Part shown: one piece after another, positions 945-26,769 of the stretch
Position numbering within the stretch: position 1 is the stretch's first letter
How the letters are laid out: each line of letters begins with the position of its first letter
Source: a virus
IMG/VR virus record: IMGVR_UViG_3300022542_001227
Location: 1 to 40,383 of that record
Length of the DNA stretch: 40,383 bases
Strand: one strand, 5' to 3'
Position numbers and translations under genes: made by a program
Notes under the pieces: model-generated
What the model was told of the DNA's origin: nothing
What the model saw: only the letters and a program-made list of their open reading frames with translations
The model's database searches: none

Positions 945-1367
945 TTATTTTTTCTTTAATTTTTCCCTTAATTCTAGTTCTAGATCAGAAATCATTTCAA
1001 ACAGTTGGCCAATCATCATTGGGCTACGTAATTCACCTTCTGCTTTTTTAAGATATTCTTTCAATTCTTTTAGGTCTTTTTCTTCTAGTGACCATACACC
1101 TTTGTCTGTATTGAATTTATTTCTGATTGATTTGATATAGGTGTAGATTTTACCAGCTTCTTCTGCATCTTTTGGTTTTACAGATGTTGCAAGCAATCTA
1201 AGAATCAATGTACCAACATCAAGTACAGGGGCCATCTTACGAATTTCTGAAATTGTTTTTCCTTCCAGTTGTTCTTTAGATGCTTCAAGTCTTGCTGCTT
1301 CATGGATTTCTTTGCCCATATGATCTAGAACCAATTCTTTGAGTTTTAGAACTACTGCTTCACTCAT
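945..1367 (-). CDS. Coiled-coil protein (140 aa)
   Basis: Track ORF 945..1376 trimmed to the ATG at 1367, which directly follows the ATGCTACAT promoter motif. K/E/L-rich helical sequence. Confidence 0.6.
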   Translation of the reverse strand: MSEAVVLKLKELVLDHMGKEIHEAARLEASKEQLEGKTISEIRKMAPVLDVGTLILRLLATSVKPKDAEEAGKIYTYIKSIRNKFNTDKGVWSLEEKDLKELKEYLKKAEGELRSPMMIGQLFEMISDLELELREKLKKK

Positions 1368-1395
1368 ATGTAGCATAAAAAAAAGAAAGAATAAA
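1368..1395 (-). promoter_or_regulatory. Motif promoter 1: TTTATTC box, then ATGCTACAT abutting the ATG at 1367
   Basis: Gene-sense strand reads tttattctttcttttttttATGCTACAT-ATG. Confidence 0.5.
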
Positions 1396-1400
1396 AAGAT

Positions 1401-1757
1401 TTACAATGAATCAATTATTGATTTTGTGGCATCAAAAATTTCTTGTCTTCTAGTATTATCCATATCCTTAGCTGGTATCATTGGATCTTTTGGTAATACA
1501 TCAAAAACACGTTTCGTTACTGCAGGTGTTCCAGGTTGTGCTGATACTGCTGGTTCAACTTCTGTTTCACCATCCATTACTGCATCTTTTCCAGGTTGTG
1601 CTGATACTGCTGGTGTTTCTTCAACTTCACGTGAGTTCATTTTGATGCTAGTAATTGCTTCTTCTGCTTGATTCAGTGTAGATCTTTGTGTTCTGTTTTG
1701 GCCAAGTTTATCTTGGATTTTCTGCGTAAGATCTGAGATTTGTTTATCAGTTGGCAT
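1401..1757 (-). CDS. Hypothetical protein with internal repeat (118 aa)
   Basis: Track ORF. PAVSAQPG occurs twice, encoded by a 60-nt tandem repeat. The antisense ORF 1339..1671 is judged a shadow. Confidence 0.55.
   Translation of the reverse strand: MPTDKQISDLTQKIQDKLGQNRTQRSTLNQAEEAITSIKMNSREVEETPAVSAQPGKDAVMDGETEVEPAVSAQPGTPAVTKRVFDVLPKDPMIPAKDMDNTRRQEIFDATKSIIDSL
1516..1635. repeat. Imperfect 60-nt tandem duplication inside CDS 1401..1757
   Basis: The 24-mer ccaggttgtgctgatactgctggt is exact at 1531-1554 and 1591-1614. Confidence 0.8.
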
Positions 1758-1797
1758 TACAAGATGGTTTGTTTGGAATTATTTAAAAGAATTGAAT

Positions 1798-2112
1798 TTA
1801 GGCATATCTTACATCTACGAATGTATAAAATAATACATCATCAAACATGGAATAGATAGATCTTTTTTGATTCATTGTTTGCCCACCATTAAAACGCCAT
1901 ACATATTTTCCATGTGCTTTTGCTGATGCTTCATTTTTTCTAACTGTTTTGATTTTCTTAAGTACCTCAACGGCACAAATTTTACCATTTTTTACAGCTA
2001 TTCCATCTGGACATTTACCATTAAGATTAATTGTTTTGTAACCTTTATTTTGTAATTCTTTCAAAAATTCTTTTACTTTATCCTCATGCTCTATTGAACC
2101 TCTCTTGGCCAT
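1798..2112 (-). CDS. PD-(D/E)xK nuclease, Holliday-junction-resolvase (Hjc)-like
   Basis: RGSIEHE ... PDGIAV ... VEVLKK reproduces the order and spacing of the Hjc catalytic E / D / E-x-K residues. The track start at 2130 is GTG, so the ATG at 2112 is preferred. Confidence 0.5.
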   Translation of the reverse strand: MAKRGSIEHEDKVKEFLKELQNKGYKTINLNGKCPDGIAVKNGKICAVEVLKKIKTVRKNEASAKAHGKYVWRFNGGQTMNQKRSIYSMFDDVLFYTFVDVRYA

Positions 2113-2120
2113 AATTGAAT

Positions 2121-2292
2121 AAACACACACCTGTATTAAAAGGTGTCACACCTTTGTTTCCAGTCCGCTAATAGATTTAATTAATGTTATTTTTCTTTTT
2201 TTATTATTTTATTTAATTTTTAAAAAAACTTAAAATTAAAAATACCTACTGGAAATATAGGTGTCTCTCCCTTTTGTTTAGGTGTGTGTGTC
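2121..2292. promoter_or_regulatory. Origin-like region: AT-rich core bracketed by nested inverted and direct repeats
   Basis: ACACACACCT (2123-2132) pairs with AGGTGTGTGT (2280-2289). TTTCCAGT (2157-2164) pairs with ACTGGAAA (2248-2255). Direct repeats AGGTGTCACACCTTTGTTT (2141-2159) and AGGTGTCTCTCCCTTTTGTTT (2259-2279). Perfect 17-bp palindrome at 2138-2154. The ~83-bp core is almost entirely A/T. Confidence 0.4.
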
Positions 2293-2327
2293 TAAAATCA
2301 TTTATTTTCTATCAATTTAAAGATAGA

Positions 2328-4868: not shown

Positions 4869-4914
4869 GACAAATTACAGTTCTAATGCATGTATTTTAC
4901 TATTTTGCAGTAAA

Positions 4915-5550: not shown

Positions 5551-5871
5551 TCAATCACTTTTCAATTTATCCAAATCAAATTCCAGGTTAGTGTCCTGGT
5601 GATCAGATTGTACTGCAGTACTTGATTCATCATAATCATCTTCTACTACATTCATTTGTTTTTTTCTAGTTTCAATTTCTGCAATATTTTGCTTTTCTTT
5701 TTTATTTTTAATTTTAGTTAGTATTCTTTTGTAACCATTTGCAGTTGGTTTTTTCTTATCGCACTTCCAGCATCTTGTGGGATTTGTAATATCATTTTCA
5801 GCACCACATTCTTCATATGGACATATCCATTTTGGAAAAAATTCTACATTAGATTTCTGATTTTGCAGCAT
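5551..5871 (-). CDS. RanBP2-like zinc-finger protein (106 aa)
   Basis: WICPYEECGAENDITNPTRCWKC fits W-x-C-x4-C-x3-N-x7-C-x2-C. A K-rich then acidic tail follows. Confidence 0.6.
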   Translation of the reverse strand: MLQNQKSNVEFFPKWICPYEECGAENDITNPTRCWKCDKKKPTANGYKRILTKIKNKKEKQNIAEIETRKKQMNVVEDDYDESSTAVQSDHQDTNLEFDLDKLKSD

Positions 5872-6895: not shown

Positions 6896-7084
6896 TTAAT
6901 CTGCAGTATCATCACCTTCATCATCTGCAAGTGTTTGATCTACTTGTTCAAGCCATCCTTGTGCAGCATTGTTTGCACGTTCAATTGCATTACTGGTATC
7001 ATCATCTTGTTCATTTGTAATTTCCATTAGCAGTTGGATGATTGCATAATTTTGTGCAACTAGTACTTCATTGATATGTACCAT
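6896..7084 (-). CDS. Small acidic protein (62 aa)
   Basis: Track ORF. The ATG directly abuts the stop of 7085..7237. Confidence 0.45.
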   Translation of the reverse strand: MVHINEVLVAQNYAIIQLLMEITNEQDDDTSNAIERANNAAQGWLEQVDQTLADDEGDDTAD

Positions 7085-7237
7085 CTAAAGTTTCACCCTT
7101 CGTTGTTCTGCAGTATTAGCTGATTTTTGAAATGTACCGTTTCTAAATTCCCATCCTTGGCCCCATTTATCAGTGAAAAAACTACCATTGATTGGATTTA
7201 TTGGTCTTGTTTCTGCTTGCTTTTCTTCATATAACAT
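7085..7237 (-). CDS. Small protein (50 aa), first gene of a motif-driven transcription unit
   Basis: Hand translation MLYEEKQAETRPINPINGSFFTDKWGQGWEF... The ATG abuts the GTAGCATATTGCTAC palindrome. Confidence 0.5.
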   Translation of the reverse strand: MLYEEKQAETRPINPINGSFFTDKWGQGWEFRNGTFQKSANTAEQRRVKL

Positions 7238-7267
7238 GTAGCAATATGCTACAAAGGGGTATTTAAA
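7238..7267 (-). promoter_or_regulatory. Motif promoter 2: TTTAAATA at -30, palindrome GTAGCA-TAT-TGCTAC abutting the ATG
   Basis: Read directly. The palindrome spans 7238-7252. Confidence 0.6.
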
Positions 7268-7286
7268 AATATAGTATTCCAGGTGA

Positions 7287-7448
7287 TTAGCCTGAATTAT
7301 TCTTTAGATATTCTTTAGCATCAAATTCACTAGTAAATGGGCCCACCATTTTATTTATGGCAAAGTATCCACGTTGTGGATTTTTACCAGTGCCATCATC
7401 TACATTTTCAAGATATAGTGCTTCATTCTCTATTGTCATTACTGGCAT
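7287..7448 (-). CDS. Small protein (53 aa)
   Basis: Hand translation MPVMTIENEALYLENVDDGTGKNPQRGYFAINK... Below the track cutoff. Confidence 0.4.
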   Translation of the reverse strand: MPVMTIENEALYLENVDDGTGKNPQRGYFAINKMVGPFTSEFDAKEYLKNNSG

Positions 7449-7485
7449 AAACTAAGATAAAATAATAGAAATAAAAAAGTTGTGA

Positions 7486-7758
7486 TTAGTTACCAACTAA
7501 TCTATTTGTATGTCTAGATATTTCACTTGATTTTCTACGAATTGATTCAATTACAGTTACTAAGTTTTCCATACTTGGCATTGTACCGCTTTTAGAATCT
7601 GTTTCTGGATTACCAGCAGCAACAGGCTTATCACCATTTACAAGAATATCCAATGATTGTTTTGGACTTAATAATACTTCATCTATTTCTTGTAATTGTT
7701 GATAAATTCCTTTTAGATTTTTAGGAATTTCCATTACTGCTTCTTTTTGATCACTCAT
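7486..7758 (-). CDS. Hypothetical protein (90 aa)
   Basis: Track ORF with ATG start. Confidence 0.5.
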   Translation of the reverse strand: MSDQKEAVMEIPKNLKGIYQQLQEIDEVLLSPKQSLDILVNGDKPVAAGNPETDSKSGTMPSMENLVTVIESIRRKSSEISRHTNRLVGN

Positions 7759-7761
7759 TAG

Positions 7762-7968
7762 TCATGCTACATCTTCTAACTTTATAATCTCTTTGGTTTT
7801 TCTTTTCTCAACACGATCAACAATCTCACCGTCATACACTACATTATGTTCTTTACACCACAATAGTAAACACTTGTCACTACACCAACGAAATGAATCA
7901 AGTGGAAATATTGCAAATGTAACTTGTGCACCTAAAATATCACATCTAATGCAGTGTTTTAATTTCAT
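7762..7968 (-). CDS. Cys-rich small protein (68 aa)
   Basis: Track ORF 7762..8103 trimmed to MKLKHCIRCD...FRWCSDKC...WCKEH. The longer version overlaps 7946..8152. Confidence 0.45.
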   Translation of the reverse strand: MKLKHCIRCDILGAQVTFAIFPLDSFRWCSDKCLLLWCKEHNVVYDGEIVDRVEKRKTKEIIKLEDVA

Positions 7969-8152
7969 GTGTACCCCTATCATATGATACTTCTTTACAA
8001 GTACAACCAATTGATTCAATTGTTCCATCAGTTCTTGGTATAATTCTAGTAACACCAACACCACAAAGATTTCCATTATGTCCAGGATGGCCACATGTTT
8101 CACATTGTTGGCAGTATTTATTATTGAATTTCCTAGTGCAAGATCTACACAA
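7946..8152 (-). CDS. CCHC zinc-knuckle protein (68 aa)
   Basis: CETCGHPGHNGNLC fits C-x2-C-x4-H-x4-C exactly. There is an additional CRSC...CQQC pair. TTG start. Confidence 0.5.
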   Translation of the reverse strand: MCRSCTRKFNNKYCQQCETCGHPGHNGNLCGVGVTRIIPRTDGTIESIGCTCKEVSYDRGTHEIKTLH

Positions 8153-8297
8153 TTTTAATCAAGTCTAAATTATTTTCAAATATCTTTAGCCATGCTAATG
8201 TAGCAATATATGGTTCTTCACTATGTAAGATACACCATCTGGCCCTATCTAGACAAAATTCTAAAAAATCTAAATTAGTTATCATCAGTGAAATCAT
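8145..8297 (-). CDS. Possible small protein (50 aa)
   Basis: Hand translation MISLMITNLDFLEFCLDRARWCILHSEEPYIATLAWLKIF... Confidence 0.35.
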   Translation of the reverse strand: MISLMITNLDFLEFCLDRARWCILHSEEPYIATLAWLKIFENNLDLIKIV

Positions 8298-8363
8298 CTA
8301 TAGATGTACCTTTATGGTTTTCGTTGTGTGTCTTTTTGTTAGATAGTTTAGATGTTCGAAGTG

Positions 8364-8585
8364 TCAATATCTACATACACCATAGTGAATTACATTATTT
8401 TCATAATTTGTGTGCTCATTAATTTCATGGGCATAAATGCATGGGTTCCAATAACTAAGATAGATAGTTTTGGAATAATAGTATGTGCACCCATCTACTG
8501 GTACACCATTACAACTAATTGGATTTTCAGCAATGATTAATGTCCAACCACAAACAGATGCAATACAAATTGCTACTTCAATCAA
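8364..8585 (-). CDS. Cys-rich small protein (73 aa)
   Basis: Track ORF with a TTG start in a TTGA overlap with 8582..8704. Confidence 0.4.
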   Translation of the reverse strand: MIEVAICIASVCGWTLIIAENPISCNGVPVDGCTYYYSKTIYLSYWNPCIYAHEINEHTNYENNVIHYGVCRY

Positions 8586-8704
8586 GACATGCCACTACCA
8601 AAACAAACAGGGCAATCACCAACCACTACATCACCTTCCATTTCTTGGCCAGTACCACTACATGTAATACAATCAAAGCCATCTGATTCTTCTTCAAAAC
8701 TCAT
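8582..8704 (-). CDS. DnaJ-type CxxCxGxG zinc-finger micro-protein (40 aa)
   Basis: Hand translation MSFEEESDGFDCITCSGTGQEMEGDVVVGDCPVCFGSGMS. ATGA overlap with 8701..8892. Confidence 0.45.
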   Translation of the reverse strand: MSFEEESDGFDCITCSGTGQEMEGDVVVGDCPVCFGSGMS

Positions 8705-8892
8705 TGTAGATCATCTATTCTTGCTTTCTTGTAACTATAATCTAATGTTTCAGTTAATGTTTTTTCAGTATCAGGTGTTAATAATAATCTCATATCATAA
8801 CCACATTTTTCACAAAAAATAATCAATTCATCTTGTAAATAATGTACATAACTACATCTTTTACAAGTAGTAATGTCGCCTTCATATCTCAT
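8701..8892 (-). CDS. Zinc-ribbon protein (63 aa)
   Basis: CKRC ... CEKC pairs. 4-nt overlap with the upstream gene. Confidence 0.5.
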   Translation of the reverse strand: MRYEGDITTCKRCSYVHYLQDELIIFCEKCGYDMRLLLTPDTEKTLTETLDYSYKKARIDDLQ

Positions 8893-9188
8893 TTCAATTC
8901 ATCCTTCTTTACAATTGCTGCAATAATATGTTTACAAGAAAAAGTGTGGCCATGTTCTGAAAAATAGTTTGATGCTAGGCATTTTGAATCTTTCATGTAG
9001 TCCATACCAAATTTGAAGGAAGGACAACTACATGCATTAAAGATACCATCAGCAGTAATGACACCACAATATTTTATTTTAGTTCCATCAACTACTTTGA
9101 AGTGATTCTTTGTATGAAATATTACATCAACTAGTTTTGATTTCTTGATTCGTCTATTCTTTTCAAAGATTTGTTTACTGGTGTTCAA
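8889..9188 (-). CDS. SWIM-type zinc-finger protein (99 aa)
   Basis: CSCPSFKF ... CKHIIAAI fits the CxC-xn-CxH SWIM signature. Confidence 0.6.
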   Translation of the reverse strand: MNTSKQIFEKNRRIKKSKLVDVIFHTKNHFKVVDGTKIKYCGVITADGIFNACSCPSFKFGMDYMKDSKCLASNYFSEHGHTFSCKHIIAAIVKKDELK

Positions 9189-9538: not shown

Positions 9539-9548
9539 CAGTGTCGAT

Positions 9549-18599: not shown

Positions 18600-18639
18600 G
18601 ATATTGTCAATAAAATTACATAAAATAGTAGATTCCGTT

Positions 18640-18653
18640 CATTGTATACAATG
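18640..18653. repeat. CATTGTATACAATG palindrome, copy 3
   Basis: Perfect 14-bp palindrome in the intergenic composite element. Confidence 0.75.
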
Positions 18654-18668
18654 TGCAGGACAACATTG

Positions 18669-18682
18669 GGCCCAATTGGGCC
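18669..18682. repeat. GGCCCAATTGGGCC perfect palindrome
   Basis: GC-rich 14-mer in an AT-rich genome. It occupies the slot held by the 20-mer palindrome in the paralogous element at 35408-35427. Confidence 0.7.
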
Positions 18683-18685
18683 ATT

Positions 18686-18704
18686 TCCAGGTCAGTTACC
18701 TGGT
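18686..18704. repeat. 19-bp CCAGGT-N5-ACCTGG hairpin repeat, copy 1
   Basis: tccaggtcagttacctggt is the exact reverse complement of 19825-19843. Confidence 0.85.
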
Positions 18705-18947
18705 TACTGGACTGGAAACAAAGGGGTGCACATATGCAATTACAACATCTGTTTCAATTGCTTCATCTATAATGTGATCCATACAATAATGTCTGTTAGG
18801 TTTGTTTACAATTTCATTTTTACAATGCCTGTTGCTACATTTTTTGTATAATTTTACTTTATGATTCCTCAAAGTATGAGCAAGAAACGCAGCAGAATCT
18901 AATTTGTTAAGGGGATTACCAAATAGATCTTTCTGATTCTTGCACAT
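18696..18947 (-). CDS. Cys/His-rich protein (83 aa)
   Basis: HCKNEIVNKPNRHYCMDH. The track TTG start is replaced by the ATG at 18947. The last codons overlap the 19-bp CCAGGT hairpin repeat. Confidence 0.45.
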   Translation of the reverse strand: MCKNQKDLFGNPLNKLDSAAFLAHTLRNHKVKLYKKCSNRHCKNEIVNKPNRHYCMDHIIDEAIETDVVIAYVHPFVSSPVTR

Positions 18948-19020
18948 GCTTTGATTCAACAATACTTTACAAAGTCTGAATATCAGTCTAATTGATCAAA
19001 AAGATTAAGCTGATGGTTGA

Positions 19021-20256
19021 TTATTTGACTTGATTGCCATATCCTCTAAAACCTTTTGTTGGCTCTCTTTGATACATTTCAATTGCATCTGGTCTATTGG
19101 GATACATTTCTAGTAACATTTTAGCAAATATTTTTGGCTTGGCAGAATGTTCACCAACTGGTGCATCAATAACAGATTCAAATCTTTTTACTGGTACAAC
19201 TTTCTTACCTTTGAAACAAAGTAACAATGTTTCATGGTATCCAAGTGTGTAAGAACCAGTATTTGGTTTATCTTTATGCCATATGATTTCTGCACCAACT
19301 TCAAGACCATGTGCTTCTAAGATATGTTCCATTGTAGATCTAGTTTTTGAAATTGGTTTCATAATTTTTCTATGCTGTGTTACGTGATTTACTACACCTG
19401 CTTCAACTATTGTTTCACGTTCACCAGTAATTCTTTTAATTCTATCATACTTCATACTGTTTGGTATCCACATTGCAACAACTGCTTCATCTGCAATTGG
19501 TAATTTAATATCACAAATTTCATCAAGTGTCATTAATGGATAATGTTTCAATGCCCCACCACGTACAGTTGCATCTTTGAATTTGTAGGGCCAATCAACA
19601 TATAGCAATGTAGTTTTGCCTTCTGGTGCTGGTAACTTTGGTAAATTTCGTTCTTTGATTGTAACTAGTGTATGTACTGTATTGATTGATTTTTTCTTTT
19701 TATCCAAATCATCTAAAAACTTTTCAAATTCAGGGTTTGCATCAACACTATCAATGATTTTTTTAATCTTTGAAATTTGTGCTGGTGAATCACCAGTAAT
19801 TTGTGATACTATTTTGATTGTTTTACCAGGTAACTGACCTGGATTGTCTTTTGTTGGTCTACCAAGTATTTGCTTCTTTTCAATCAAATCAATAATGGTT
19901 CCAATTTCCCTTGTAGTGTAACCTTTACGTGCACCAGTTCCAATAAAACCTGCAGCAACTAGATCATCAACATCTAACATTACAAAAGGAATTACAGTTG
20001 CATCAAGTGATTCAAATGCTTGTATTCTTCGTTCACCTTTTACAAGTTTCATTTTTGGTGTAATTAGTATTGGCTGTTCTATTCCTACTTCTAGCATTGT
20101 ATTAGCTAGTGCTTCAATATCACCATAGTTGGTTCTGATTCTGCCAGATCTATCAATGTCTGCAATTGAAATTAATTCTGCATTAGTTGGTACTTTGATT
20201 TGAATTGCTTTTGTTTCAAAATAACCACCAACAAATTTTTGTGGTTTGTGAATCAT
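19021..20256 (-). CDS. ParB-like N-terminal domain fused to an MT-A70-type N6-adenine DNA methyltransferase (411 aa)
   Basis: ParB/Srx box GIEQPILITPKMKLVKGERRIQAF. MT-A70-like LLYVDWPY (a DPPW variant), YPLMTLDEI, MWIPN, IIWHKDK and HSAKPK. Confidence 0.8.
   Translation of the reverse strand: MIHKPQKFVGGYFETKAIQIKVPTNAELISIADIDRSGRIRTNYGDIEALANTMLEVGIEQPILITPKMKLVKGERRIQAFESLDATVIPFVMLDVDDLVAAGFIGTGARKGYTTREIGTIIDLIEKKQILGRPTKDNPGQLPGKTIKIVSQITGDSPAQISKIKKIIDSVDANPEFEKFLDDLDKKKKSINTVHTLVTIKERNLPKLPAPEGKTTLLYVDWPYKFKDATVRGGALKHYPLMTLDEICDIKLPIADEAVVAMWIPNSMKYDRIKRITGERETIVEAGVVNHVTQHRKIMKPISKTRSTMEHILEAHGLEVGAEIIWHKDKPNTGSYTLGYHETLLLCFKGKKVVPVKRFESVIDAPVGEHSAKPKIFAKMLLEMYPNRPDAIEMYQREPTKGFRGYGNQVK
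19825..19843. repeat. 19-bp hairpin repeat, copy 2 (inside the ParB-MT-A70 gene, at the domain junction)
   Basis: accaggtaactgacctgga encodes NPGQLPG. Confidence 0.85.
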
Positions 20257-20429
20257 TGCTCTACCTCACTATACTTTGGTATTTCACTAAACTTTATTAC
20301 TTTGGAATAATCTATATTGTTTTTCTTGGGATTGCCTTGTTCATCTACATATCCATTCTTTGTCCATATCCAAGTTTTAGTGACTCCTTTGAGTTTTTCT
20401 TCATGTTTACCTTTGATGTGTGTAATCAT
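20253..20429 (-). CDS. Hypothetical protein (58 aa)
   Basis: Track ORF trimmed from a GTG start to the ATG at 20429. 4-nt overlap with the methyltransferase gene. Confidence 0.45.
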   Translation of the reverse strand: MITHIKGKHEEKLKGVTKTWIWTKNGYVDEQGNPKKNNIDYSKVIKFSEIPKYSEVEQ

Positions 20430-20538
20430 TAACACTCACTCCAACCACATTCACAGTCATAACCATTTTCATTATACTTGCATTTTTTACCACATTTAGA
20501 ACAGTTTAGAGTACCCTCAATAGTTTCAAAATCTTCAA

Positions 20539-20727
20539 TCAATCTTCTCTCTCCCATAGTTCAGCATGTTTACCCATAGGGATTCTAGTTCTAGGTGGTA
20601 ATTTTCCATCTCTTAATTGTCTTAATTTGGATTGTGTAATATCAAAGAATTGTGACATACCTTTCATATCCATTCCTTGTTCTAATGAGTCTACCAATTC
20701 AGTTTTAGTAAGATAGTTTTGAGTCAA
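20539..20727 (-). CDS. Possible helix-turn-helix protein (62 aa)
   Basis: MSQFFDITQSKLRQLRDGK is an HTH-like segment. TTG start in a TTGA overlap. Confidence 0.4.
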   Translation of the reverse strand: MTQNYLTKTELVDSLEQGMDMKGMSQFFDITQSKLRQLRDGKLPPRTRIPMGKHAELWERED

Positions 20728-20918
20728 TGCATAAAAAACTCCTGTACGATAGTTGCAGTTTCAATTAATCCACAACCTGACTCACATTTTGGACAAAACA
20801 GTTGTACTAATTCAGGTAATTCTTTGTAACGTCTATCAAACTCTAAAATCTCTAACTGTGTAGAACATTCAGCACATGTTCTTTCAGTTGTTAATGTTTC
20901 TGATTTATCTAAACTCAA
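20724..20918 (-). CDS. Zinc-ribbon protein (about 64 aa)
   Basis: CAEC ... CPKC. The track ORF 20724..21008 has a hydrophobic N-terminus that looks like an out-of-frame read of 20938..21075. A TTG at 20918 lies 9 nt after AGGAG. Confidence 0.4.
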   Translation of the reverse strand: MSLDKSETLTTERTCAECSTQLEILEFDRRYKELPELVQLFCPKCESGCGLIETATIVQEFFMH

Positions 20919-20937
20919 GAACAATCTCTCCTGAGTG

Positions 20938-21075
20938 TCATTTAATTCCCTCAATGTGTTTTTTGATACATTCAAAACAAAATAAATCACTACAAAAACC
21001 ACATTCAAAATGGTGATTTCTTGCCTCCATGTGCCAACATTGGTCGGTTGAATTACACTTTAATTCTTTAATCAA
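20938..21075 (-). CDS. Cys/His-rich micro-protein (45 aa)
   Basis: Hand translation (M)IKELKCNSTDQCWHMEARNHHFECGFCSDLFCFECIKKHIEGIK. TTG start in a TTGA overlap. Confidence 0.4.
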   Translation of the reverse strand: MIKELKCNSTDQCWHMEARNHHFECGFCSDLFCFECIKKHIEGIK

Positions 21076-21188
21076 CTACTTTCTACTCCAAGTGTTGTTT
21101 GGCAGACGTTACCACAGTCTTGACAAATCTCCTTATTGGAATCTAAATCAGGTAACGTATTGTTAGTTTTACAGTTATAACATCTCAT
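21072..21188 (-). CDS. Zinc-ribbon micro-protein (38 aa)
   Basis: Hand translation MRCYNCKTNNTLPDLDSNKEICQDCGNVCQTTLGVESS. ATGA overlap. Confidence 0.4.
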   Translation of the reverse strand: MRCYNCKTNNTLPDLDSNKEICQDCGNVCQTTLGVESS

Positions 21189-21295
21189 TTTAATTTCTTA
21201 CCCTCACTTCTTAGACCACATTTTGAACATTGTGATTTTGGTTTAGAACTGATAAAATAATGACTGCATTTACAAGAAAATAAAAAATAAGGCAT
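21185..21295 (-). CDS. Zinc-ribbon micro-protein (36 aa)
   Basis: Hand translation MPYFLFSCKCSHYFISSKPKSQCSKCGLRSEGKKLK. TAATG overlap. Confidence 0.4.
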   Translation of the reverse strand: MPYFLFSCKCSHYFISSKPKSQCSKCGLRSEGKKLK

Positions 21296-21411
21296 TAGAA
21301 ATAATATCTGCCTCTATATGTTACAAATCCATTTTCCAACCCCTCTCTTAATGGGATTGTTCTAAAGACTTTTTGGATTGTTTGTATGTTGTGAGTTTTT
21401 ACTTGTTTCAT
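21295..21411 (-). CDS. Small protein (38 aa), first gene behind the GTTATAATATAAC operator pair
   Basis: Hand translation MKQVKTHNIQTIQKVFRTIPLREGLENGFVTYRGRYYF. Confidence 0.4.
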   Translation of the reverse strand: MKQVKTHNIQTIQKVFRTIPLREGLENGFVTYRGRYYF

Positions 21412-21458
21412 GTTATATTATAACAACTCCTTAGTTATATACATTGTTATATTATAAC
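21412..21458 (-). promoter_or_regulatory. Promoter with two GTTATAATATAAC near-palindromes bracketing a TATATAAC box
   Basis: 13-mers at 21412-21424 (abutting the ATG at 21411) and 21446-21458. TATA-like octamer at 21434-21441, starting 30 nt upstream of the ATG. Confidence 0.5.
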
Positions 21459-21461
21459 ACT

Positions 21462-21710
21462 TCAACTACGTTCAACCTCAAGTGTATAGTGATTTAATTT
21501 TCCTAGTTTCTTATCCTTTTCATAATCCATGAATAATTTATGGTCTCTGTCTGTCATTGAACAGTAATGAGGCTTACAATATTTTGTTTTTAATCCCCAA
21601 TCTAATGCAAATTGATACTGTGATTCGTTTTGATTCATGGCGTAATTTGCTTTCCATACTTTACAGATGAATAAATTTTCTAACCAATTTGGTTTTTCTT
21701 TAACTTCCAT
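21462..21710 (-). CDS. Hypothetical protein (82 aa)
   Basis: Track ORF with ATG start and a TAATG overlap with the upstream gene. Confidence 0.5.
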   Translation of the reverse strand: MEVKEKPNWLENLFICKVWKANYAMNQNESQYQFALDWGLKTKYCKPHYCSMTDRDHKLFMDYEKDKKLGKLNHYTLEVERS

Positions 21711-21928
21711 TATGCTTTACCCTCATCTTCTTTTGTTGTTTGACCTGTTTGTTCCAACCAAAAATCAAATAATTCTCCTAGTGGAAATAACTCATTGTGT
21801 ATCATTTCTTCTAATTTTGGCATGACTTGTAAACAGAAATTGGTTGAATATCCCCTAGATGCAAGATGTTGACATTGATCTTTCAATGCTAGATACTGCA
21901 TAACTGTGTTAAGTTCCTCAAATTTCAT
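21710..21928 (-). CDS. Hypothetical protein (72 aa)
   Basis: Track ORF 21710..21994 trimmed to the ATG at 21928, giving an ATGA overlap with 21925..22299. Confidence 0.45.
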   Translation of the reverse strand: MKFEELNTVMQYLALKDQCQHLASRGYSTNFCLQVMPKLEEMIHNELFPLGELFDFWLEQTGQTTKEDEGKA

Positions 21929-22299
21929 ATCGCTTTCCCTTCTTCTTTGTCGGTATCTTGGGGTTCTTCGTGTAGCCTCTCTAATGTATCCCACATACCA
22001 TTTGGTTTAGTAACTCTGAGAATTGTTTTAGCATTTAGATTCTTTTCAGGTAGAGTTTTGTAATCCCAACCCTCAGAACCGTCATATTCTGAACGTTCTA
22101 ACCACCAAGTACCACCAACAACTAACAAATCACTAGCAATCTCTTGAGCACCATATCCTGAATCATAGTCTATATCTGCAATCTTTTCAAATTCTTTCCA
22201 AGAGATAACATATTCACCATTACCAACCCATTTAATTTCAACAGTGCTTTTGTCATGACTCTTTAGAATCGATAGTGTTTCTTCAAGTAAGTTTGTCAT
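21925..22299 (-). CDS. Hypothetical protein (124 aa)
   Basis: Track ORF with a GGTWWLERSEYDGSEGWDY segment. No family assigned. Confidence 0.55.
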   Translation of the reverse strand: MTNLLEETLSILKSHDKSTVEIKWVGNGEYVISWKEFEKIADIDYDSGYGAQEIASDLLVVGGTWWLERSEYDGSEGWDYKTLPEKNLNAKTILRVTKPNGMWDTLERLHEEPQDTDKEEGKAI

Positions 22300-22430
22300 T
22301 TCTTCACTTTCCCAATGTTTGAAAGTGTATTTTCACGCATGATTGATTCATAAATAAATTGGTACTCTTTTTTGAAATCTTCTGAAAGATTAGGTGTGAT
22401 GCAATCATGTAAGAATTGATATTGTTTCAT
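22296..22430 (-). CDS. Small protein (44 aa)
   Basis: Hand translation MKQYQFLHDCITPNLSEDFKKEYQFIYESIMRENTLSNIGKVKK. ATGA overlaps at both ends. Confidence 0.4.
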   Translation of the reverse strand: MKQYQFLHDCITPNLSEDFKKEYQFIYESIMRENTLSNIGKVKK

Positions 22431-22531
22431 TGAGAACTCTTACCTCGAAGTGTAACTTGACTCGGACACCCTTGATAACATGGAGGACATATCCAATGGT
22501 GATTTCGTTTATGTAATGCACAATAGAACAT
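22427..22531 (-). CDS. Cys/His micro-protein (34 aa)
   Basis: Hand translation MFYCALHKRNHHWICPPCYQGCPSQVTLRGKSSQ. GGGAG lies 11 nt upstream of the ATG. Confidence 0.4.
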   Translation of the reverse strand: MFYCALHKRNHHWICPPCYQGCPSQVTLRGKSSQ

Positions 22532-22623
22532 TATCGATTTAACTCCCAATGATAAACACAATACTCTGAATTATCTTCTTGTACTGTAGCCTCTTCAAAA
22601 CATTCAGGCCAATCACACGTCAT
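22531..22623 (-). CDS. Cys/His micro-protein (30 aa)
   Basis: Hand translation MTCDWPECFEEATVQEDNSEYCVYHWELNR. The ATG abuts the stop of 22624..22857. Confidence 0.35.
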   Translation of the reverse strand: MTCDWPECFEEATVQEDNSEYCVYHWELNR

Positions 22624-22857
22624 CTAACATTTTCCCCCTTTTGTTCGCTGAGGAATGAATTTATCGTCAGGGTGGCATTTATGACAGTCTAACGAATCAT
22701 AAAATCCATCAAAACAATAACCACAAGGTTCATCACATAAGATAAACTCAGGATTCCAGCCATATTCTTGATTATGGAATATTACATGTTTTGGTAATCT
22801 AAGTAAAAATCCTATTTGTCTAACTCGTCTATGAATTAAACCATGAATGTTCCTCAT
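22624..22857 (-). CDS. Cys/His-rich protein (77 aa)
   Basis: CDEPCGYCFDGFYDSLDCHKCH. Track ORF abutting the Dam gene stop. Confidence 0.5.
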   Translation of the reverse strand: MRNIHGLIHRRVRQIGFLLRLPKHVIFHNQEYGWNPEFILCDEPCGYCFDGFYDSLDCHKCHPDDKFIPQRTKGGKC

Positions 22858-23259
22858 CTACCTGTTTCTCCTTTCGGTTACATGAGGCGTAAAGATACAA
22901 AGCATTGAACCATACATAGGATGTTTACCACTATCTAATTGCAAGCGACCTCTAAAACCCAAGATTTTAGCATTAGGTACAATCAAATCAAAAAACCAGG
23001 CTGCATCAGGTACGTGCGGCAACAACATTACCGTTATGTTTCCTTTCTTTTGTTCTTTTATTGCCCTTTTAATCCAGGGTATCTTATCTGAATAAGGGGG
23101 ATTCACATAATTCATTCTAGACCATTCTATTTTTAGACCGTCCCAATCTGGATGTTCTCTTAACGGACAGGGGTCAAAGAATCCACCAAACAAATCAAGT
23201 AACCACCTGGGGCTAGGACTTGAATCTTTTGAACCCCTTGTAACCGATTGATTAATCAA
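22858..23259 (-). CDS. Phage Dam-type N6-adenine DNA methyltransferase (133 aa)
   Basis: WLLDLFGGFFDPCP followed by YVNPPYS (NPPY catalytic motif) and IPWIKRA. Size and layout match the small phage Dam family. TTG start after GGGAG. Confidence 0.8.
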   Translation of the reverse strand: MINQSVTRGSKDSSPSPRWLLDLFGGFFDPCPLREHPDWDGLKIEWSRMNYVNPPYSDKIPWIKRAIKEQKKGNITVMLLPHVPDAAWFFDLIVPNAKILGFRGRLQLDSGKHPMYGSMLCIFTPHVTERRNR

Positions 23260-23390
23260 TTATCTAACAACTCCCTTTTCTTTCTATTTGTAACAATTTG
23301 AGGATAGCATTTAGGACAACGCCATAAACAATCAGTGCAATTACAAGAATGGTTACAGTCTGGCTCGTTCCCCTTTGGCTGTTCTGTCAT
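23256..23390 (-). CDS. Cys-rich micro-protein (44 aa)
   Basis: Hand translation MTEQPKGNEPDCNHSCNCTDCLWRCPKCYPQIVTNRKKRELLDN. ATGA overlap. Confidence 0.4.
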   Translation of the reverse strand: MTEQPKGNEPDCNHSCNCTDCLWRCPKCYPQIVTNRKKRELLDN

Positions 23391-23560
23391 TTGACTCGTC
23401 TGACTCCTTCATCTGCTGAATGTTTTTCACATAATCCAATTCTAACATTATTACCATTCCATGATTTCATGATAAATCCTGTAAAAACAGGTTTACCACA
23501 CATTCCAGTTTTTGATAAATATCTTAAACAAGTCTCCTTGCTCTTTGTAGAATCGGGCAT
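23387..23560 (-). CDS. Small Cys-containing protein (57 aa)
   Basis: Hand translation MPDSTKSKETCLRYLSKTGMCGKPVFTGFIMKSWNGNNVRIGLCEKH... AGGAG lies 11 nt upstream. Confidence 0.45.
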   Translation of the reverse strand: MPDSTKSKETCLRYLSKTGMCGKPVFTGFIMKSWNGNNVRIGLCEKHSADEGVRRVK

Positions 23561-23594
23561 CAGGCTTTATCTCCTGAACCGAATGAATGTTTTG

Positions 23595-23711
23595 TCAAAT
23601 TAACTCATCCTCCAAATCGTATGGAGTAAAACCAATATCTCTTTTCCAGATAATTAGATTGGCATACCTGATAAATGCTATAATTGGATTCTCAATTTGA
23701 CGTTTATTCAA
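23595..23711 (-). CDS. Possible small protein (38 aa)
   Basis: Hand translation (M)NKRQIENPIIAFIRYANLIIWKRDIGFTPYDLEDELI. Requires a TTG start. Confidence 0.3.
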   Translation of the reverse strand: MNKRQIENPIIAFIRYANLIIWKRDIGFTPYDLEDELI

Positions 23712-23811
23712 TTTCGCTTACCTCATTTTTCCTATCTTCCATAATCTGACATTCATGACAAAATTTGTATGTGTGAGTATTACAATCTGGACAATTATTC
23801 AACTCGGTCAT
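23704..23811 (-). CDS. Zinc-ribbon micro-protein (35 aa)
   Basis: Hand translation MTELNNCPDCNTHTYKFCHECQIMEDRKNEVSEIE. AAGGAG lies 9 nt upstream. ATGA overlap. Confidence 0.4.
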   Translation of the reverse strand: MTELNNCPDCNTHTYKFCHECQIMEDRKNEVSEIE

Positions 23812-23897
23812 TGACCATCACTCCTTTCCTCACCACATTGAGGACAGAAAACCCATGTTTCGTCTAATTCAAAACTACAAGAAATACACTCTTTCAT
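23808..23897 (-). CDS. Zinc-ribbon micro-protein (29 aa)
   Basis: Hand translation MKECISCSFELDETWVFCPQCGEERSDGQ. TAATG overlap with 23897..24349. Confidence 0.4.
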   Translation of the reverse strand: MKECISCSFELDETWVFCPQCGEERSDGQ

Positions 23898-24349
23898 TAT
23901 TGTTTATACAACTCCACCATACTGTACAAAAATACTTGTGCAAGTATACTTCTTTCTTTTGCATTTTTATCAACAATAATTGGGCCTTCTTTTGTTGGCA
24001 TTCCAGTTTCATCTTTTGGTACTTGTGATTCAGCATACTTTTTTGCTGCTGGCCATAGATCATATAACATTCTTTCAGAATCTTTTAGTTTTTGTTCTGG
24101 TGTTCTAGTTGGTTTTGAAGGGATTGCACCACGTGCTTCTTTAACTTTGAAAATTGGTTTCATATCAAAGTACTTGTGGATTGCAGAAATTTCATCATAC
24201 ACTGCATTTCGTTCTTTAGTAGATTTTGATTTATCAAAAAACAAATCACATAGTTCTTTTCTTCTTGCATGGATTACATCTAGTGCACCTGCATCATGTT
24301 GATCACGTGGCTTTTTCATTAATTCTTGTACTGTTTTATCTGGTTCCAA
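23897..24349 (-). CDS. Hypothetical protein (150 aa)
   Basis: Track ORF. TTG start 5 nt after GGTGA. An alternative ATG lies at 24319. Confidence 0.5.
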   Translation of the reverse strand: MEPDKTVQELMKKPRDQHDAGALDVIHARRKELCDLFFDKSKSTKERNAVYDEISAIHKYFDMKPIFKVKEARGAIPSKPTRTPEQKLKDSERMLYDLWPAAKKYAESQVPKDETGMPTKEGPIIVDKNAKERSILAQVFLYSMVELYKQ

Positions 24350-24358
24350 TCATTTCAC

Positions 24359-24559
24359 CTATTGAGATTTTAATTTCCTATATTCATTTAATTTTGATTC
24401 GTTGATTCTAATGTTAATTGAAATGTTTGCACCAATTGCTGGATCAAAACCATCTGTAATTACAGGGTTCATTATTGCTTTTGCTTCTGTTGCTTCTTGG
24501 ATTATATTTTGTACTTCCATCATTTTTCTAACTACATAATCATCTATTGATTCTACCAA
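24359..24559 (-). CDS. Hypothetical protein (66 aa)
   Basis: Track ORF. The TTG start abuts the stop of 24560..24718. Confidence 0.45.
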   Translation of the reverse strand: MVESIDDYVVRKMMEVQNIIQEATEAKAIMNPVITDGFDPAIGANISINIRINESKLNEYRKLKSQ

Positions 24560-24718
24560 TTATTTCAGCCTCTTTTTGTCTTTAGAAATTGCAGAATTTA
24601 TTGCATTAATCATGTATGAAGGTAATGAACCTAGGGTATATTTTTCTAGAAAAGTATTCCATTTCTTAACATCTGTTTTTAATGCTCTAATATTTGTCCA
24701 CTTGCTTGTTTTAACCAT
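24560..24718 (-). CDS. Small basic protein (52 aa), first gene of a motif-driven unit
   Basis: Hand translation MVKTSKWTNIRALKTDVKKWNTFLEKYTLGSLPSYMINAINSAISKDKKRLK. The ATG abuts the GTAGCAAAATGCTAC palindrome. Confidence 0.45.
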   Translation of the reverse strand: MVKTSKWTNIRALKTDVKKWNTFLEKYTLGSLPSYMINAINSAISKDKKRLK

Positions 24719-24748
24719 GTAGCATTTTGCTACAAGACATTATATAAA
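24719..24748 (-). promoter_or_regulatory. Motif promoter 7: TTTATATA at -30, palindrome GTAGCA-AAA-TGCTAC abutting the ATG
   Basis: Palindrome at 24719-24733. Confidence 0.6.
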
Positions 24749-24752
24749 GATT

Positions 24753-25565
24753 TTATTTTCTATTGTACAAAGATCTTAAAACCCTTCGTTGTCGCCATCT
24801 AGATAAATGGCGGTTCAATATGCCTGAACTTCCAAATCTATCTTGCATTCTTGGAATGCTGCTTATTGTATCCCAATAGAAATTTTGTTTCTGTAGTATT
24901 CCATTAACATATCCAGGCTTTGCATATGGCCCCATTAGTGATTCATTGGGATTTGCTAAATCATGTCTTCCAATTAGTGAATGAAATATTTCATGCATTG
25001 CAATTTGTAATGTTGGCTGACTGGCTCTCATTATTAAATTACCTAGTCTATCAGTTTGTCCTGGATGGAAATTTATAGGATCAACAAAGTGTGCTTCAAC
25101 TGGCCAACCTAATGAAGTAAAATACCAATTGCTTTCTGGTGAATCATTGAATTCTATTACACCATTAAATTTTGAATTTGGATAATATAGATATGCATGT
25201 GCAAGTACTCCAAGTTTGTTTCCAAATGTTTCAATATCTTCACGCCATTCAATTGTAAGATCAGTTTTGATTCCAGTGAGTTTTTGAAAATCTAATTTTA
25301 TTTTTGTTAATTTTTGAAAAGAATTGAATGCTTCTTGAAATGTAGTTAGCTGTGCTTTACCAGTCATATCGGGTGTATGATCTATAAATTTCCAATCAAA
25401 ATATTTTTTATCAGGTGGCCAATTGAATTTCCATATATCTTGGCCAATATCTATTTCATCAACAATCTCACCGTCTAGTGTGTTTAGTACATAGTTGATT
25501 GTTTTACCTGGGTTATCTTCTTGAACTAGTGAACATCTGATTTGATCAGTACTGAAATTAACCAT
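24753..25565 (-). CDS. Matrixin-like (metzincin) zinc metalloprotease, no signal peptide (270 aa)
   Basis: HEIFHSLIGRH zinc site at 24963-24995 followed by an SLMGPY Met-turn. Upstream TDLTIEWRED and GVLAHAYLYYPNSKFNGVIEFNDSPESNWYF parallel the matrixin blocks aDImI.F and GtLAHAf.P...G..HFDd.E.W. Confidence 0.7.
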   Translation of the reverse strand: MVNFSTDQIRCSLVQEDNPGKTINYVLNTLDGEIVDEIDIGQDIWKFNWPPDKKYFDWKFIDHTPDMTGKAQLTTFQEAFNSFQKLTKIKLDFQKLTGIKTDLTIEWREDIETFGNKLGVLAHAYLYYPNSKFNGVIEFNDSPESNWYFTSLGWPVEAHFVDPINFHPGQTDRLGNLIMRASQPTLQIAMHEIFHSLIGRHDLANPNESLMGPYAKPGYVNGILQKQNFYWDTISSIPRMQDRFGSSGILNRHLSRWRQRRVLRSLYNRK

Positions 25566-25570
25566 GTTAA

Positions 25571-25600
25571 ATTAAAATAAAAAAAGAAGATAAAGGTTTC
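25571..25600 (-). repeat. 30-bp conserved intergenic element, copy A (terminator and/or promoter)
   Basis: Gene-sense GAAACCTTTATCTTCTTTTTTTATTTTAAT, identical to 35989-36018. Lies between a stop codon and the next ATG. Confidence 0.8.
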
Positions 25601-26133
25601 TAGTTGTTCCAGGCTTGATCGTTCATTACACGTTTCTTTTCAGCAATTGCTTCTGCCATTTGTTTTTGTGCATCTACAATATCTTTACTAACTGCATCAA
25701 TTTCTTCTGAAAAATTATCCTTTAGTGTTGGATATTGTTCTTTCATTGAATTGAATTTTGCAAGTAGTTTTTCACTTCTAACAATATCATCAGCATAAAA
25801 TTGTATCATTTGATTCAATTGTTTGGCCATGTTAGTGCGTGCCCAATTGCCATTTGGACTTCTTAACCCACTTGATACTACTGCAGCAATCTTTTGTCCT
25901 TGGGTAATACCCAGCATCAAAATACCTGCACCTGCAATACTAAACACAACACCTTGGAATAATCCAAGATCAATTGTTCCAGTTACAACAATGTTATCTT
26001 TGCCATTCCAAACACCAATGATTACTGTTGCAGCATATGTTGCAACAATTAGTACAAGTACTACACCAACAACTATCATTGCCATTTCATTCTTGCTTAG
26101 ATTTCCTAATTGGTTAGGATTGTCTTTACTCAT
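25600..26133 (-). CDS. Two-TM membrane protein with C-terminal coiled coil (177 aa), holin-like candidate
   Basis: Hydrophobic helices MAMIVVGVVLVLIVATYAATVIIGVW and LGLFQGVVFSIAGAGILMLGI. Motif-type promoter upstream. Confidence 0.6.
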   Translation of the reverse strand: MSKDNPNQLGNLSKNEMAMIVVGVVLVLIVATYAATVIIGVWNGKDNIVVTGTIDLGLFQGVVFSIAGAGILMLGITQGQKIAAVVSSGLRSPNGNWARTNMAKQLNQMIQFYADDIVRSEKLLAKFNSMKEQYPTLKDNFSEEIDAVSKDIVDAQKQMAEAIAEKKRVMNDQAWNN

Positions 26134-26164
26134 TGAATATGTAGCATATTGTCTACTATTAAAA
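26134..26164 (-). promoter_or_regulatory. Motif promoter 8: TTTTAATA at -31, degenerate palindrome GTAGAC-AATA-TGCTAC, 6-nt spacer to the ATG
   Basis: Motif at 26139-26156. Confidence 0.5.
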
Positions 26165-26446
26165 TTAGTCTGATTTTAGATTAAAGTGCTTTAGTAAAAT
26201 ATCCACTTTTGCAGTAGTAGCTGCTTGTTCTACCTTTACTTCTTCTAACTCTTTGTATAGATCTTTATGAGTATCATGACCATTTTTGGTTTCTTCTTCT
26301 TGGTGTTCTAGTTTATTTCTAAAAATTGTTAGGCATTTATCTTTTTTAATTACATACTTGATCCCTTTGTAAATAAAAGGTGATAAGATAGCTGCAACAC
26401 CAACTGCAGTTCCAGCAGCAATTTCAAGATAAAAATGCTCAGACAT
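26165..26446 (-). CDS. Single-TM membrane protein with charged C-terminus (93 aa)
   Basis: N-terminal helix IAAGTAVGVAAILSPFIY followed by a K/E/H-rich tail. Confidence 0.55.
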   Translation of the reverse strand: MSEHFYLEIAAGTAVGVAAILSPFIYKGIKYVIKKDKCLTIFRNKLEHQEEETKNGHDTHKDLYKELEEVKVEQAATTAKVDILLKHFNLKSD

Positions 26447-26505
26447 AGGATGATGAAAGTATGCATGTATTTAAGAAATGATTTATGCCTAGGTTATTGT
26501 GTAAT

Positions 26506-26535
26506 ATTTATTACATGCTACATGAAATATGCTAC
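26506..26535 (+). promoter_or_regulatory. Motif promoter 9 (plus strand): ATTTATTA at -30, tandem ATGCTACATG-N4-ATGCTACATG
   Basis: Copies at 26515-26524 and 26529-26538. Confidence 0.55.
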
Positions 26536-26769
26536 ATGAATCAAAACAAAAAAGCATTGATAATTACATTATCAGTATTAGCTACTGTGATTGTAATTTC
26601 TACTGGGTTCAGTTATGCAACACATATTGATGAATCTGATCCAGATTGGCAATGTAAAAAATGGATAGGTATAACAGAACTTGCAAAACAAGGTTATCCA
26701 CATTTTCTTGAAGATAGTTTAACTATGGGCAAGATGAAATGTGGTTTTGACATTAGTGAATTTATTTAA
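26536..26769 (+). CDS. Small secreted or membrane-anchored protein (77 aa); the only plus-strand gene
   Basis: Track ORF 26485..26769 trimmed to the ATG at 26536, which abuts the second ATGCTAC copy. MNQNKKALIITLSVLATVIVISTGFSYA is a signal or anchor-like segment. Two Cys residues. Confidence 0.55.
   Translation: MNQNKKALIITLSVLATVIVISTGFSYATHIDESDPDWQCKKWIGITELAKQGYPHFLEDSLTMGKMKCGFDISEFI

Follow-up and report, generated by a model that had tools for sequence, protein, structure and literature searches.

A start-site heptad shared by nine predicted promoters of a very likely archaeal virus: a candidate operator for a small viral regulator

The 40,383-nucleotide virus record IMGVR_UViG_3300022542_001227 of IMG/VR, analysed here over its whole length (the window), contains nine gene heads at which a 7-bp unit, TGCTACA (the heptad), lies at the start codon behind a TATA-like box. 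The motif is strongly over-represented, keeps its register in related genomes and belongs to a virus whose gene content points to archaea. We consider it probable that these heads are leaderless archaeal promoters carrying a start-site operator for a small viral repressor, which would control a non-structural regulon; the leading candidate for the repressor is p52, a basic protein of 52 residues. The binding of a protein to the heptads, the direction of regulation and the identity of the regulator are deduced from sequence.

An earlier description of the window (the original prediction) had placed nine such heads, and all nine were found there (Table 1). They comprise four palindromes of the form TGTAGCA-N3-TGCTACA (7237, 9509, 15704, and 24718), two tandems, two single copies, and one shifted copy with a degenerate arm at 26133, a classification that was borne out. 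The heptads of the tandem at 18569 are separated by N8, giving a 15-bp period, and those of the plus-strand tandem at 26536 by N7, giving a 14-bp period. The palindrome at 15704 runs out to CATG on each side. At 26133, the heptad is shifted to positions -13 to -7 and ends 6 nt before the ATG. The head at 1367 reads TGCTAC-AT-ATG, with 2 nt between hexamer and ATG, so that seven motifs abut the start codon rather than the eight originally claimed. Gene starts were assigned by open reading frame (ORF) logic rather than by a trained gene finder. Behind the nine heads lie genes for small non-structural proteins (methyltransferases, HNH, zinc-ribbon, and DNA-binding-like proteins) and for two small membrane proteins. 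Among the gene heads of the window, the motif was found at none of the portal, capsid, tail, or terminase genes, in agreement with the scope first proposed for the regulon.

Table 1. Positions of the motif-bearing gene heads and of the proteins discussed in the text (window coordinates; RHH, ribbon-helix-helix)
Feature	Coordinates	Strand	TATA-like box	Heptads	Remarks
Head of 140-aa gene (945-1367)	1365-1398	-	CTTTTTAT 1391-1398	Single, TGCTACA 1369-1375	ATG 1365-1367
Head of 50-aa gene (7085-7237)	7235-7267	-	TTTAAATA 7260-7267	TGTAGCA 7247-7253 (distal); TGCTACA 7237-7243 (proximal)	Palindrome
Head of 40-aa ORF (9387-9509)	9507-9539	-	GTTTTATA 9532-9539	9519-9525; 9509-9515	Palindrome
Head of 69-aa gene (12585-12794)	12792-12824	-	CTTTTTAT 12817-12824	Single, 12794-12800	
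Head of 50-aa weakly RHH-similar gene (15552-15704)	15702-15735	-	ATATATTA 15728-15735	15714-15720; 15704-15710	Palindrome
Head of 138-aa zinc-ribbon gene (18153-18569)	18567-18600	-	CTTTATTA 18593-18600	18584-18590; 18569-18575	Tandem
Head of long operon of small non-structural genes	24716-24748	-	TTTATATA 24741-24748	24728-24734; 24718-24724	Palindrome; p52 is the first gene
Head of 177-aa membrane-protein gene (25600-26133)	26131-26164	-	TTTTAATA 26157-26164	One, 26140-26146	Degenerate left arm GTAGAC
Head of the only plus-strand gene (77-aa membrane protein, 26536-26769)	26506-26538	+	ATTTATTA 26506-26513	26516-26522; 26530-26536	Tandem
p52, 52-aa basic protein	24560-24718	-			Leading candidate for binding the heptad
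50-aa RHH-like protein	15552-15704	-			Second candidate; behind a palindrome
143-aa protein	15124-15555	-			Third candidate; two winged-helix-like halves by eye; weak Z-alpha match, E = 0.5
Terminase large subunit	9748-11538				
810-aa protease/major-capsid fusion	36021-38453	-			C-terminal HK97-like capsid (major-head) domain
Matrixin-type metallopeptidase	24753-25565	-			

Some further candidates were set aside. The TGCTAC copy at 8200-8205, which had also been left out of the original count, lies within an ORF and has no TATA box. The heptad pair at 14211-14226 is likewise inside an ORF without a TATA box; it translates as V-A-L-V-A, and its occurrence there is probably a coincidence of the coding sequence. 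The upstream ATG of ATGCTACATG was rejected as a start codon because it is out of frame and too near the TATA box, and a divergent plus-strand gene at the palindromes was rejected because no ORF is present there. Two of the heads have peculiarities of their own. The 40-aa ORF at 9387-9509 overlaps, in a different frame, an 82-aa TTG-start ORF at 9185-9433, and relatives carry unrelated genes of 75 and 147 aa at its position; the region 9185-9509 on the minus strand may hold a decayed or frameshifted gene. At 26522-26539 on the plus strand, the tandem heptads form a 5-codon mini-ORF, ATG-N9-ACA-TGA, the stop of which overlaps the main ATG. This mini-ORF is kept in three genomes, including L144 and L145 (related contigs are given L numbers here), and may be a by-product of heptad spacing.

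The motif is far more frequent in the window than expected. The extended form TGCTACATG has 10 exact copies against 0.57 expected, and none of 100 dinucleotide-preserving shuffles reached 10, so the enrichment against shuffled controls held. The most over-represented 8-mer of the window is TGCTACAT (10 copies, 0.94 expected). The hexamer TGCTAC occurs 36 times (14.1 expected) and the heptad, as TGCTACA or TGTAGCA, 23 times (6.9 expected). Pairs of heptads with 1-9 nt between them number 7, against 0.02 expected.

To describe the sites in register, 29 motif sites from five genomes were aligned on the start codon; the set contains orthologues, so the sites are not independent. TGCTAC stands at -6 to -1 in 24-25 of the 29 sites. 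The A at -7, part of the motif originally called invariant, is present in 19 of the 29 and is not invariant. The proximal heptad occupies -6 to +1, its last A being the A of the ATG. In the commonest arrangement, a distal heptad lies at -16 to -10 in either orientation, 9-10 bp away centre to centre, so that the two heptads of a pair, as a dyad or in tandem, are separated by about one helical turn. The symmetry of the palindromes often reaches CATG on both flanks. The heptad is itself pseudo-symmetric (TG-YWR-CA), a property that would allow a dimer to read it both ways round, as described for the omega RHH repressor and its heptads (PMC9499535). The proposed start-site binding site for a protein was supported in that the heptads are paired and conserved; it was not supported as a strict palindrome, the unit being the heptad in either orientation.

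Distances were counted to the ATG as a stand-in for the transcription start. A box consisting only of A and T (W) covers -30 to -23 in all nine heads, with its centre at -26.5 from the A of the ATG, and a T/A-rich octamer lies within -31 to -23 in 9/9. TTTAWATA, with up to two mismatches, begins at -33 to -27 in six of the eight minus-strand motif heads. Across the 29 aligned sites, positions -28 to -24 contain no G or C, and T is found at -29 and -28 in 25. An A-rich stretch resembling the TFB-recognition element (BRE) precedes the box at -35 to -33 (A at -33 in 22/29, A at -35 in 19/29, A or T at -34 in 27/29), which is a modest signal in an AT-rich genome. C is found at -1 in 24 sites and A at +1 in all 29, the latter being fixed by the ATG. 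BRE and TATA are the described elements of archaeal promoters (PMC7289017).

The same geometry was then examined in the complete set of 35 gene starts preceded in the window by at least 25 nt of intergenic DNA (operon heads). A TTTAWATA-like octamer (at most two mismatches) begins at -33 to -27 in 24/35 heads, compared with 11.9% of 1080 control ATGs (binomial p = 6.5e-15); at other offsets in the same upstream regions, it was found at 4 to 11 of the 35 heads. The A/T octamer about 30 nt upstream is therefore present at all nine motif heads, as predicted, but it is not a trait of the family: 18 of the 27 heads lacking TGCTAC have a TATA-like box at the same register, indicating that the spacing from box to ATG is the promoter geometry of the whole genome and that the heptad marks a subclass. 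Shine-Dalgarno sequences (GGAG or GAGG at -18 to -4) were found at 3/35 heads, none of them a motif head, at 13/50 internal genes, and at 2% of random positions. Leaderless first genes combined with Shine-Dalgarno-led internal genes are the pattern of archaea such as Sulfolobus. With the box centred at -26.5, the register enriched, and the heads without Shine-Dalgarno sites, the archaeal-type leaderless geometry of the original prediction stood.

A search of related viral contigs, which the original prediction had proposed as a check, recovered the motif and its register in five related genomes. The motif was found in the same register in L002/L003, L004/L144, and L005/L006 (82-87% terminase identity), in L010 (56%), and in the 10-kb contig L145. 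The relatives more often have the full palindrome, (CA)TGTAGCA-N2-3-TGCTACATG. The promoter of the p52 operon shows no change in the TATA box or in either heptad across five genomes; variation is seen in the 3-nt spacer separating the heptads, in the 3 nt from box to heptad, and throughout the sequence upstream of -35. Arrangements can switch: the 7237 promoter is a palindrome in the window and a 10-bp direct repeat in three relatives, and the 18569 promoter is a tandem in the window and a palindrome in relatives. Both common arrangements hold the heptads at -16 to -10 and -6 to +1. The single heptad of the 12794 promoter is also single in the L004 and L005 orthologues, and the tandem of the plus-strand 26536 head is kept in L144 and L145. 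A unit that is repeated about one turn apart in either orientation, and is kept while the spacers drift, is the signature of an oligomeric sequence-specific DNA-binding protein and not of a basal promoter element.

The more distant relatives L008, L009, L018, L019, and L023 lack TGCTAC; they have the leaderless layout with a TATA box at about -30 together with other start-proximal repeats, of the ATATTGATAT / ATATGTCAATAT type in L008 and ACACATAAATAATCTTCATA in L019. A scan of IMG/VR with the motif pattern gave seven single unrelated matches (37-57% GC), which were taken as chance. The same scan of metagenomes gave at least 120 stretches; among the matches listed, no protein is in common with the window at E <= 1e-5, and the best match is ParB/MT-A70 at E = 1.3e-4.

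The window ends in an exact 141-bp terminal overlap (1-141 = 40243-40383), indicating a complete circular genome of 40,242 unique bp. Its GC content is 33%, and nearly all genes are on the minus strand. Pfam searches of all ORFs (ten large proteins, and 63 small ones concatenated with X linkers) identified only terminase, ParB/MT-A70, Dam, HNH, matrixin, and a weak DUF2793, to which PHROGs added only the capsid domain. The 810-aa fusion had one match among 50,697 phage records, the "protease/major capsid protein" of the Nitrososphaera provirus Pro-Nvie1 (E = 5e-19), and megablast of 25 kb against the same records gave zero matches. When 185,579 bacterial and archaeal species were searched, each represented by one genome, the terminase had a single relative, located on a contig of a Nitrosopumilus-labelled metagenome-assembled genome (MAG). 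The GC content of this contig is 43%, compared with 33% for the virus, and the match is therefore weak evidence on the host. Terminase matches to Bacillus-type phages (~22% identity) were uninformative in this respect. The related contig L008 (logan SRR9948809 contig, 38.8 kb; 40% terminase identity) encodes an MCM helicase. Sigma-70-like sites (-35/-10 elements 16-18 bp apart) are not enriched at 7001-27000 (86 versus 106.7 +/- 11.2 expected), and none of the best matches listed for that region lies at a motif head. Of nine sense-strand T runs of at least 7, seven fall within the 7% of the DNA that is intergenic, a concentration that fits archaeal oligo-T termination.

The capsid match, MCM, the MAG terminase, and the sigma-70, T-run, and Shine-Dalgarno results together make an archaeal host very likely. 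The host is most probably a marine ammonia-oxidising archaeon (Nitrososphaeria, Nitrosopumilus-like) and the virus most probably tailed. The sample labels of the related contigs look like marine metagenome assemblies, which is our unconfirmed reading of the labels. Rfam and tRNA scans of the window found no RNA genes. Pfam and PHROGs searches found no peptidoglycan hydrolase, and an integrase was not detected in the genome. The matrixin-type metallopeptidase has conserved counterparts (47-84% identity) in 68 protein clusters, many of which are on contigs of ~43 kb; we speculate that it might be a lysis enzyme directed against a proteinaceous S-layer.

In the mechanism that we propose, the viral transcription units would be read by host TBP, TFB, and RNA polymerase. 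The A-rich BRE at about -35 to -31 and the TATA box at -30 to -23 would set the transcription start on the A of the ATG or beside it; first genes would consequently be translated from leaderless mRNAs, and internal genes via Shine-Dalgarno sites. The nine heptad promoters would drive the non-structural and small-membrane-protein genes. A small DNA-binding protein encoded by the virus would occupy the heptads, one dimer on each; paired heptads would be bound cooperatively and act as strong operators, and the single sites (12794 and 1367) would act as weak ones, allowing graded control. A protein seated between TATA box and start would leave TBP and TFB bound and keep RNA polymerase out. The regulon would thus be controlled by a repressor, would probably be early and autoregulated, and would be shut off as the regulator accumulates.

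The direction of regulation is suggested by the position of the sites. Among archaeal regulators such as MDR1, LrpA, Phr, and the TrmB family, activation is exerted from sites upstream of the BRE, and binding downstream of the TATA box leads to repression. Because the heptads lie between TATA box and start, where a bound protein excludes RNA polymerase, repression is the likeliest outcome. The same cellular regulators offer a parallel, in that an operator between TATA box and start blocks RNA polymerase while TBP and TFB still bind; they differ in controlling few operons of cells, whereas here a viral regulon of nine promoters is concerned.

The gene that most likely encodes the heptad-binding regulator, judged from gene order and protein sequence, is p52. 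In all five genomes for which the region is available, p52 comes first after a palindromic heptad pair, its core WTNIRA...LGSLP is invariant, and a strand-helix-helix pattern can be recognized by eye, without statistical support from any method. A homologue of the second candidate, the 50-aa protein, is present in the motif-negative L019. Searches of Pfam at E <= 10 with the small regulator candidates gave nothing. A homologue search with p52 returned p52 alone, and a metagenome scan with the p52 alignment found no relatives.

Several observations weigh against the repressor reading. The predicted position of the transcription start is derived solely from the TATA spacing. For a DNA-binding fold in p52, the PDB profile search, hhalign against manually entered Arc and CopG sequences, single-sequence AlphaFold, and Foldseek were all uninformative: the PDB profile searches with p52 and the 50-aa protein gave chance matches only, the two AlphaFold models were helix hairpins (predicted local distance difference test scores of 83 and 70), and Foldseek returned nothing for either. 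The similarity of the 50-aa protein to the manually entered CopG sequence is weak (hhalign P = 5.8e-4, probability 29%), and the protein is missing at the syntenic site of the motif-positive L002, where another gene is found. The proximal heptad has the same orientation in 28/29 sites, which a purely symmetric operator does not require; this may reflect a role in initiation itself or the copying of promoter cassettes. The two tandems of the window have periods of 14-15 bp, which place their two heptads on different faces of the helix. The host assignment draws on distant homology (capsid, 23% identity) and on a MAG contig of differing GC content (43%).

These points bear on several alternatives. 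We tentatively entertain the idea that the heptad is a dual element, initiator and operator at once, read in either orientation by p52 and timing the early regulon; related lineages would then have swapped their start-site repeats together with their own regulators. A reading that we hold to be unlikely, if by no means negligible, dispenses with the repressor: the heptad would belong to the core promoter, as an extended initiator or a promoter-proximal element recognised by the basal machinery of the host or by a viral factor (TFB-like or associated with RNA polymerase), and would mark a strong or temporally distinct class of promoters. The fixed register of the proximal copy (-6 to +1), its near-fixed orientation, the conservation of single-heptad promoters as single, and the pyrimidine/purine step that the heptad provides at -1/+1 are all in keeping with such an element, and SIRV offers a precedent in a virus-specific motif downstream of the TATA box with no known reader (PMC5569661). 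However, a core element leaves unexplained both the second copy one turn upstream in either orientation and the symmetry extended to CATG. The 18 motif-free heads with the same TATA geometry further indicate that this geometry does not need the heptad, and Pfam detected no TFB-like or RNA polymerase gene.

Another reading, which we regard as improbable, is that the heptads are the sites of a virus-encoded activator, which would recruit the pre-initiation complex to early or middle promoters or stabilise it there. The evidence in cis for a sequence-specific binding protein would be the same, but archaeal activators, as noted above, have their sites upstream of the BRE. At low concentration, AvtR of AFV6 can act as an activator (PMC5569661); against an activator here, the sites between TATA box and start cover the region of ~12 bp that melts on initiation (PMC7289017).

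If the virus were instead a bacteriophage, the A/T box would be a -10-like element and the palindrome a 5'-untranslated-region hairpin or operator in a short leader lacking a Shine-Dalgarno sequence. The nearest terminases among isolated phages are indeed the ~22% identical ones of Bacillus phages, and four of the sites could fold as hairpins of 6-7 bp. This is nevertheless very hard to sustain: the capsid matches the Nitrososphaera provirus only, a relative encodes MCM, five of the nine sites are non-palindromic, no peptidoglycan hydrolase was detected, and sigma-70-like sites fall below expectation with none at the nine heads, so that the bacterial -35/-10 initiation named at the outset as a refutation was not found. 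It is just as implausible that the repeats are copies of one promoter cassette spread by recombination, the heptad having no function of its own. Such copying would account for the ~30 identical nt upstream of 35983 and 25565 and for the 19 nt common to 18584 and 26522, but orthologous promoters keep the heptads and the TATA box unchanged and diverge in their spacers and flanks, arrangements switch while heptad positions stay, and the motif persists down to 56% terminase identity. An intrinsic terminator or RNA hairpin was rejected, as only four of the nine sites are palindromic and all lie at gene starts; a terminator scan reports them owing to the AT-rich coding sequence that follows the palindrome.

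A small viral repressor acting on repeats at the start site has counterparts among archaeal viruses, in which F55, SvtR, and AvtR are RHH regulators (PMC5569661). A close likeness is F55 of SSV1, a small viral regulator that acts on short repeats at several early promoters and at its own, with sites overlapping the start site and the BRE (PMC5569661). Its graded affinity between the SSV1 early promoters produces a temporal order (PMC5569661), to which the single and paired heptads may be likened. F55 differs in binding tandem ATAGATAG(AGT) repeats and in maintaining lysogeny in a crenarchaeal fusellovirus; here, TGCTACA is inverted or direct, the virus is tailed with no integrase detected, and the binding protein is a candidate only. 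SvtR (SIRV1) and AvtR (AFV6) are autoregulated and bind imperfect inverted repeats (PMC5569661), but the sites of SvtR are far from the TATA box, and the protein spreads along the DNA. The GTC motif, which is virus-specific and lies downstream of the TATA box in SIRV promoters (PMC5569661), resembles the present one in placement; it is a trinucleotide without a known reader, whereas the heptad is a 7-bp unit on the predicted start that includes the first base of the start codon. The omega RHH repressor of plasmid pSM19035 binds as one dimer per 7-bp repeat in direct or inverted arrays that overlap promoters, two repeats being bound cooperatively (PMC9499535), which matches the orientation flips seen here. 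It differs in belonging to a bacterial plasmid and in having contiguous heptads (7-bp period) of unrelated sequence, compared with the 9-10 bp, or 14-15 bp in two sites, of the window. Pro-Nvie1 and marine thaumarchaeal tailed viruses share the protease/major-capsid fusion and the archaeal tailed-virus gene set, although the identity to Pro-Nvie1 is only 23%.

The closest archaeal systems all come from hyperthermophilic crenarchaeal viruses (PMC5569661). The present case differs in its sequence, in lying exactly on the start site with the first base of the start codon included, in regulon size, and in the group of viruses concerned. The literature that could be searched, which took in a recent virome survey, yielded no promoter or operator analysis for viruses of ammonia-oxidising archaea and no report on how their transcription is controlled. 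These viruses are abundant in the ocean, and almost none have been cultured. The genome offers a complete testable map, with predicted starts, leaderless first genes, a nine-promoter regulon, a 7-bp unit, and candidate small proteins. It also provides short defined promoter and operator parts for Nitrosopumilus-type archaea, which have no genetic tools. Related viruses seemingly differ mainly in their start-site repeats, which would provide a simple marker of regulatory lineages. If the dual-element reading were true, families of promoter-proximal operators would be a general, fast-evolving control layer in abundant uncultured viruses. The interest would be greater still if p52 had a new DNA-binding fold, or if the heptad were also an initiator.

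Other repeated elements were noted near gene starts of the window. A promoter cassette, AGAAACCTTTATCTTCTTTTTTTATTTTAAT, occurs as ~30 identical nt on the minus strand at ~35984-36018 and 25566-25600, upstream of the structural-module gene 35983 and the matrixin gene 25565; it represents a heptad-free second promoter class with a T7 run between TATA box and ATG. The element AAATACATGCA, in which the TATA box is followed directly by CATGCA, is found at 4887-4897 and 26462-26472 on the minus strand, with one-mismatch copies at 419, 5424, and 13468 (8 matches against 3.9 expected when one mismatch is allowed), and may be a third promoter-proximal class. The 17-bp inverted repeat CCAGGTNANTNNCCTGG has four copies against 0.04 expected (5583-5599, 18687-18703, 19826-19842, and 35441-35457) and recurs upstream of the TATA box at the orthologues of the 7237 promoter in L002, L004, and L005; it may act as a terminator hairpin or be bound by a second DNA-binding protein. 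A 20-nt block, CCTGCACATTGTATACAATG, at 18632-18651 on the minus strand, ~60-80 nt before the 18569 start, is kept without change in four genomes amid diverging non-coding DNA. The palindrome TTGTATACAA occurs exactly four times, within this block and at 11604, 11962, and 35383, the last copy being flanked by CCTGC...GCAGG just before the 35373 start.

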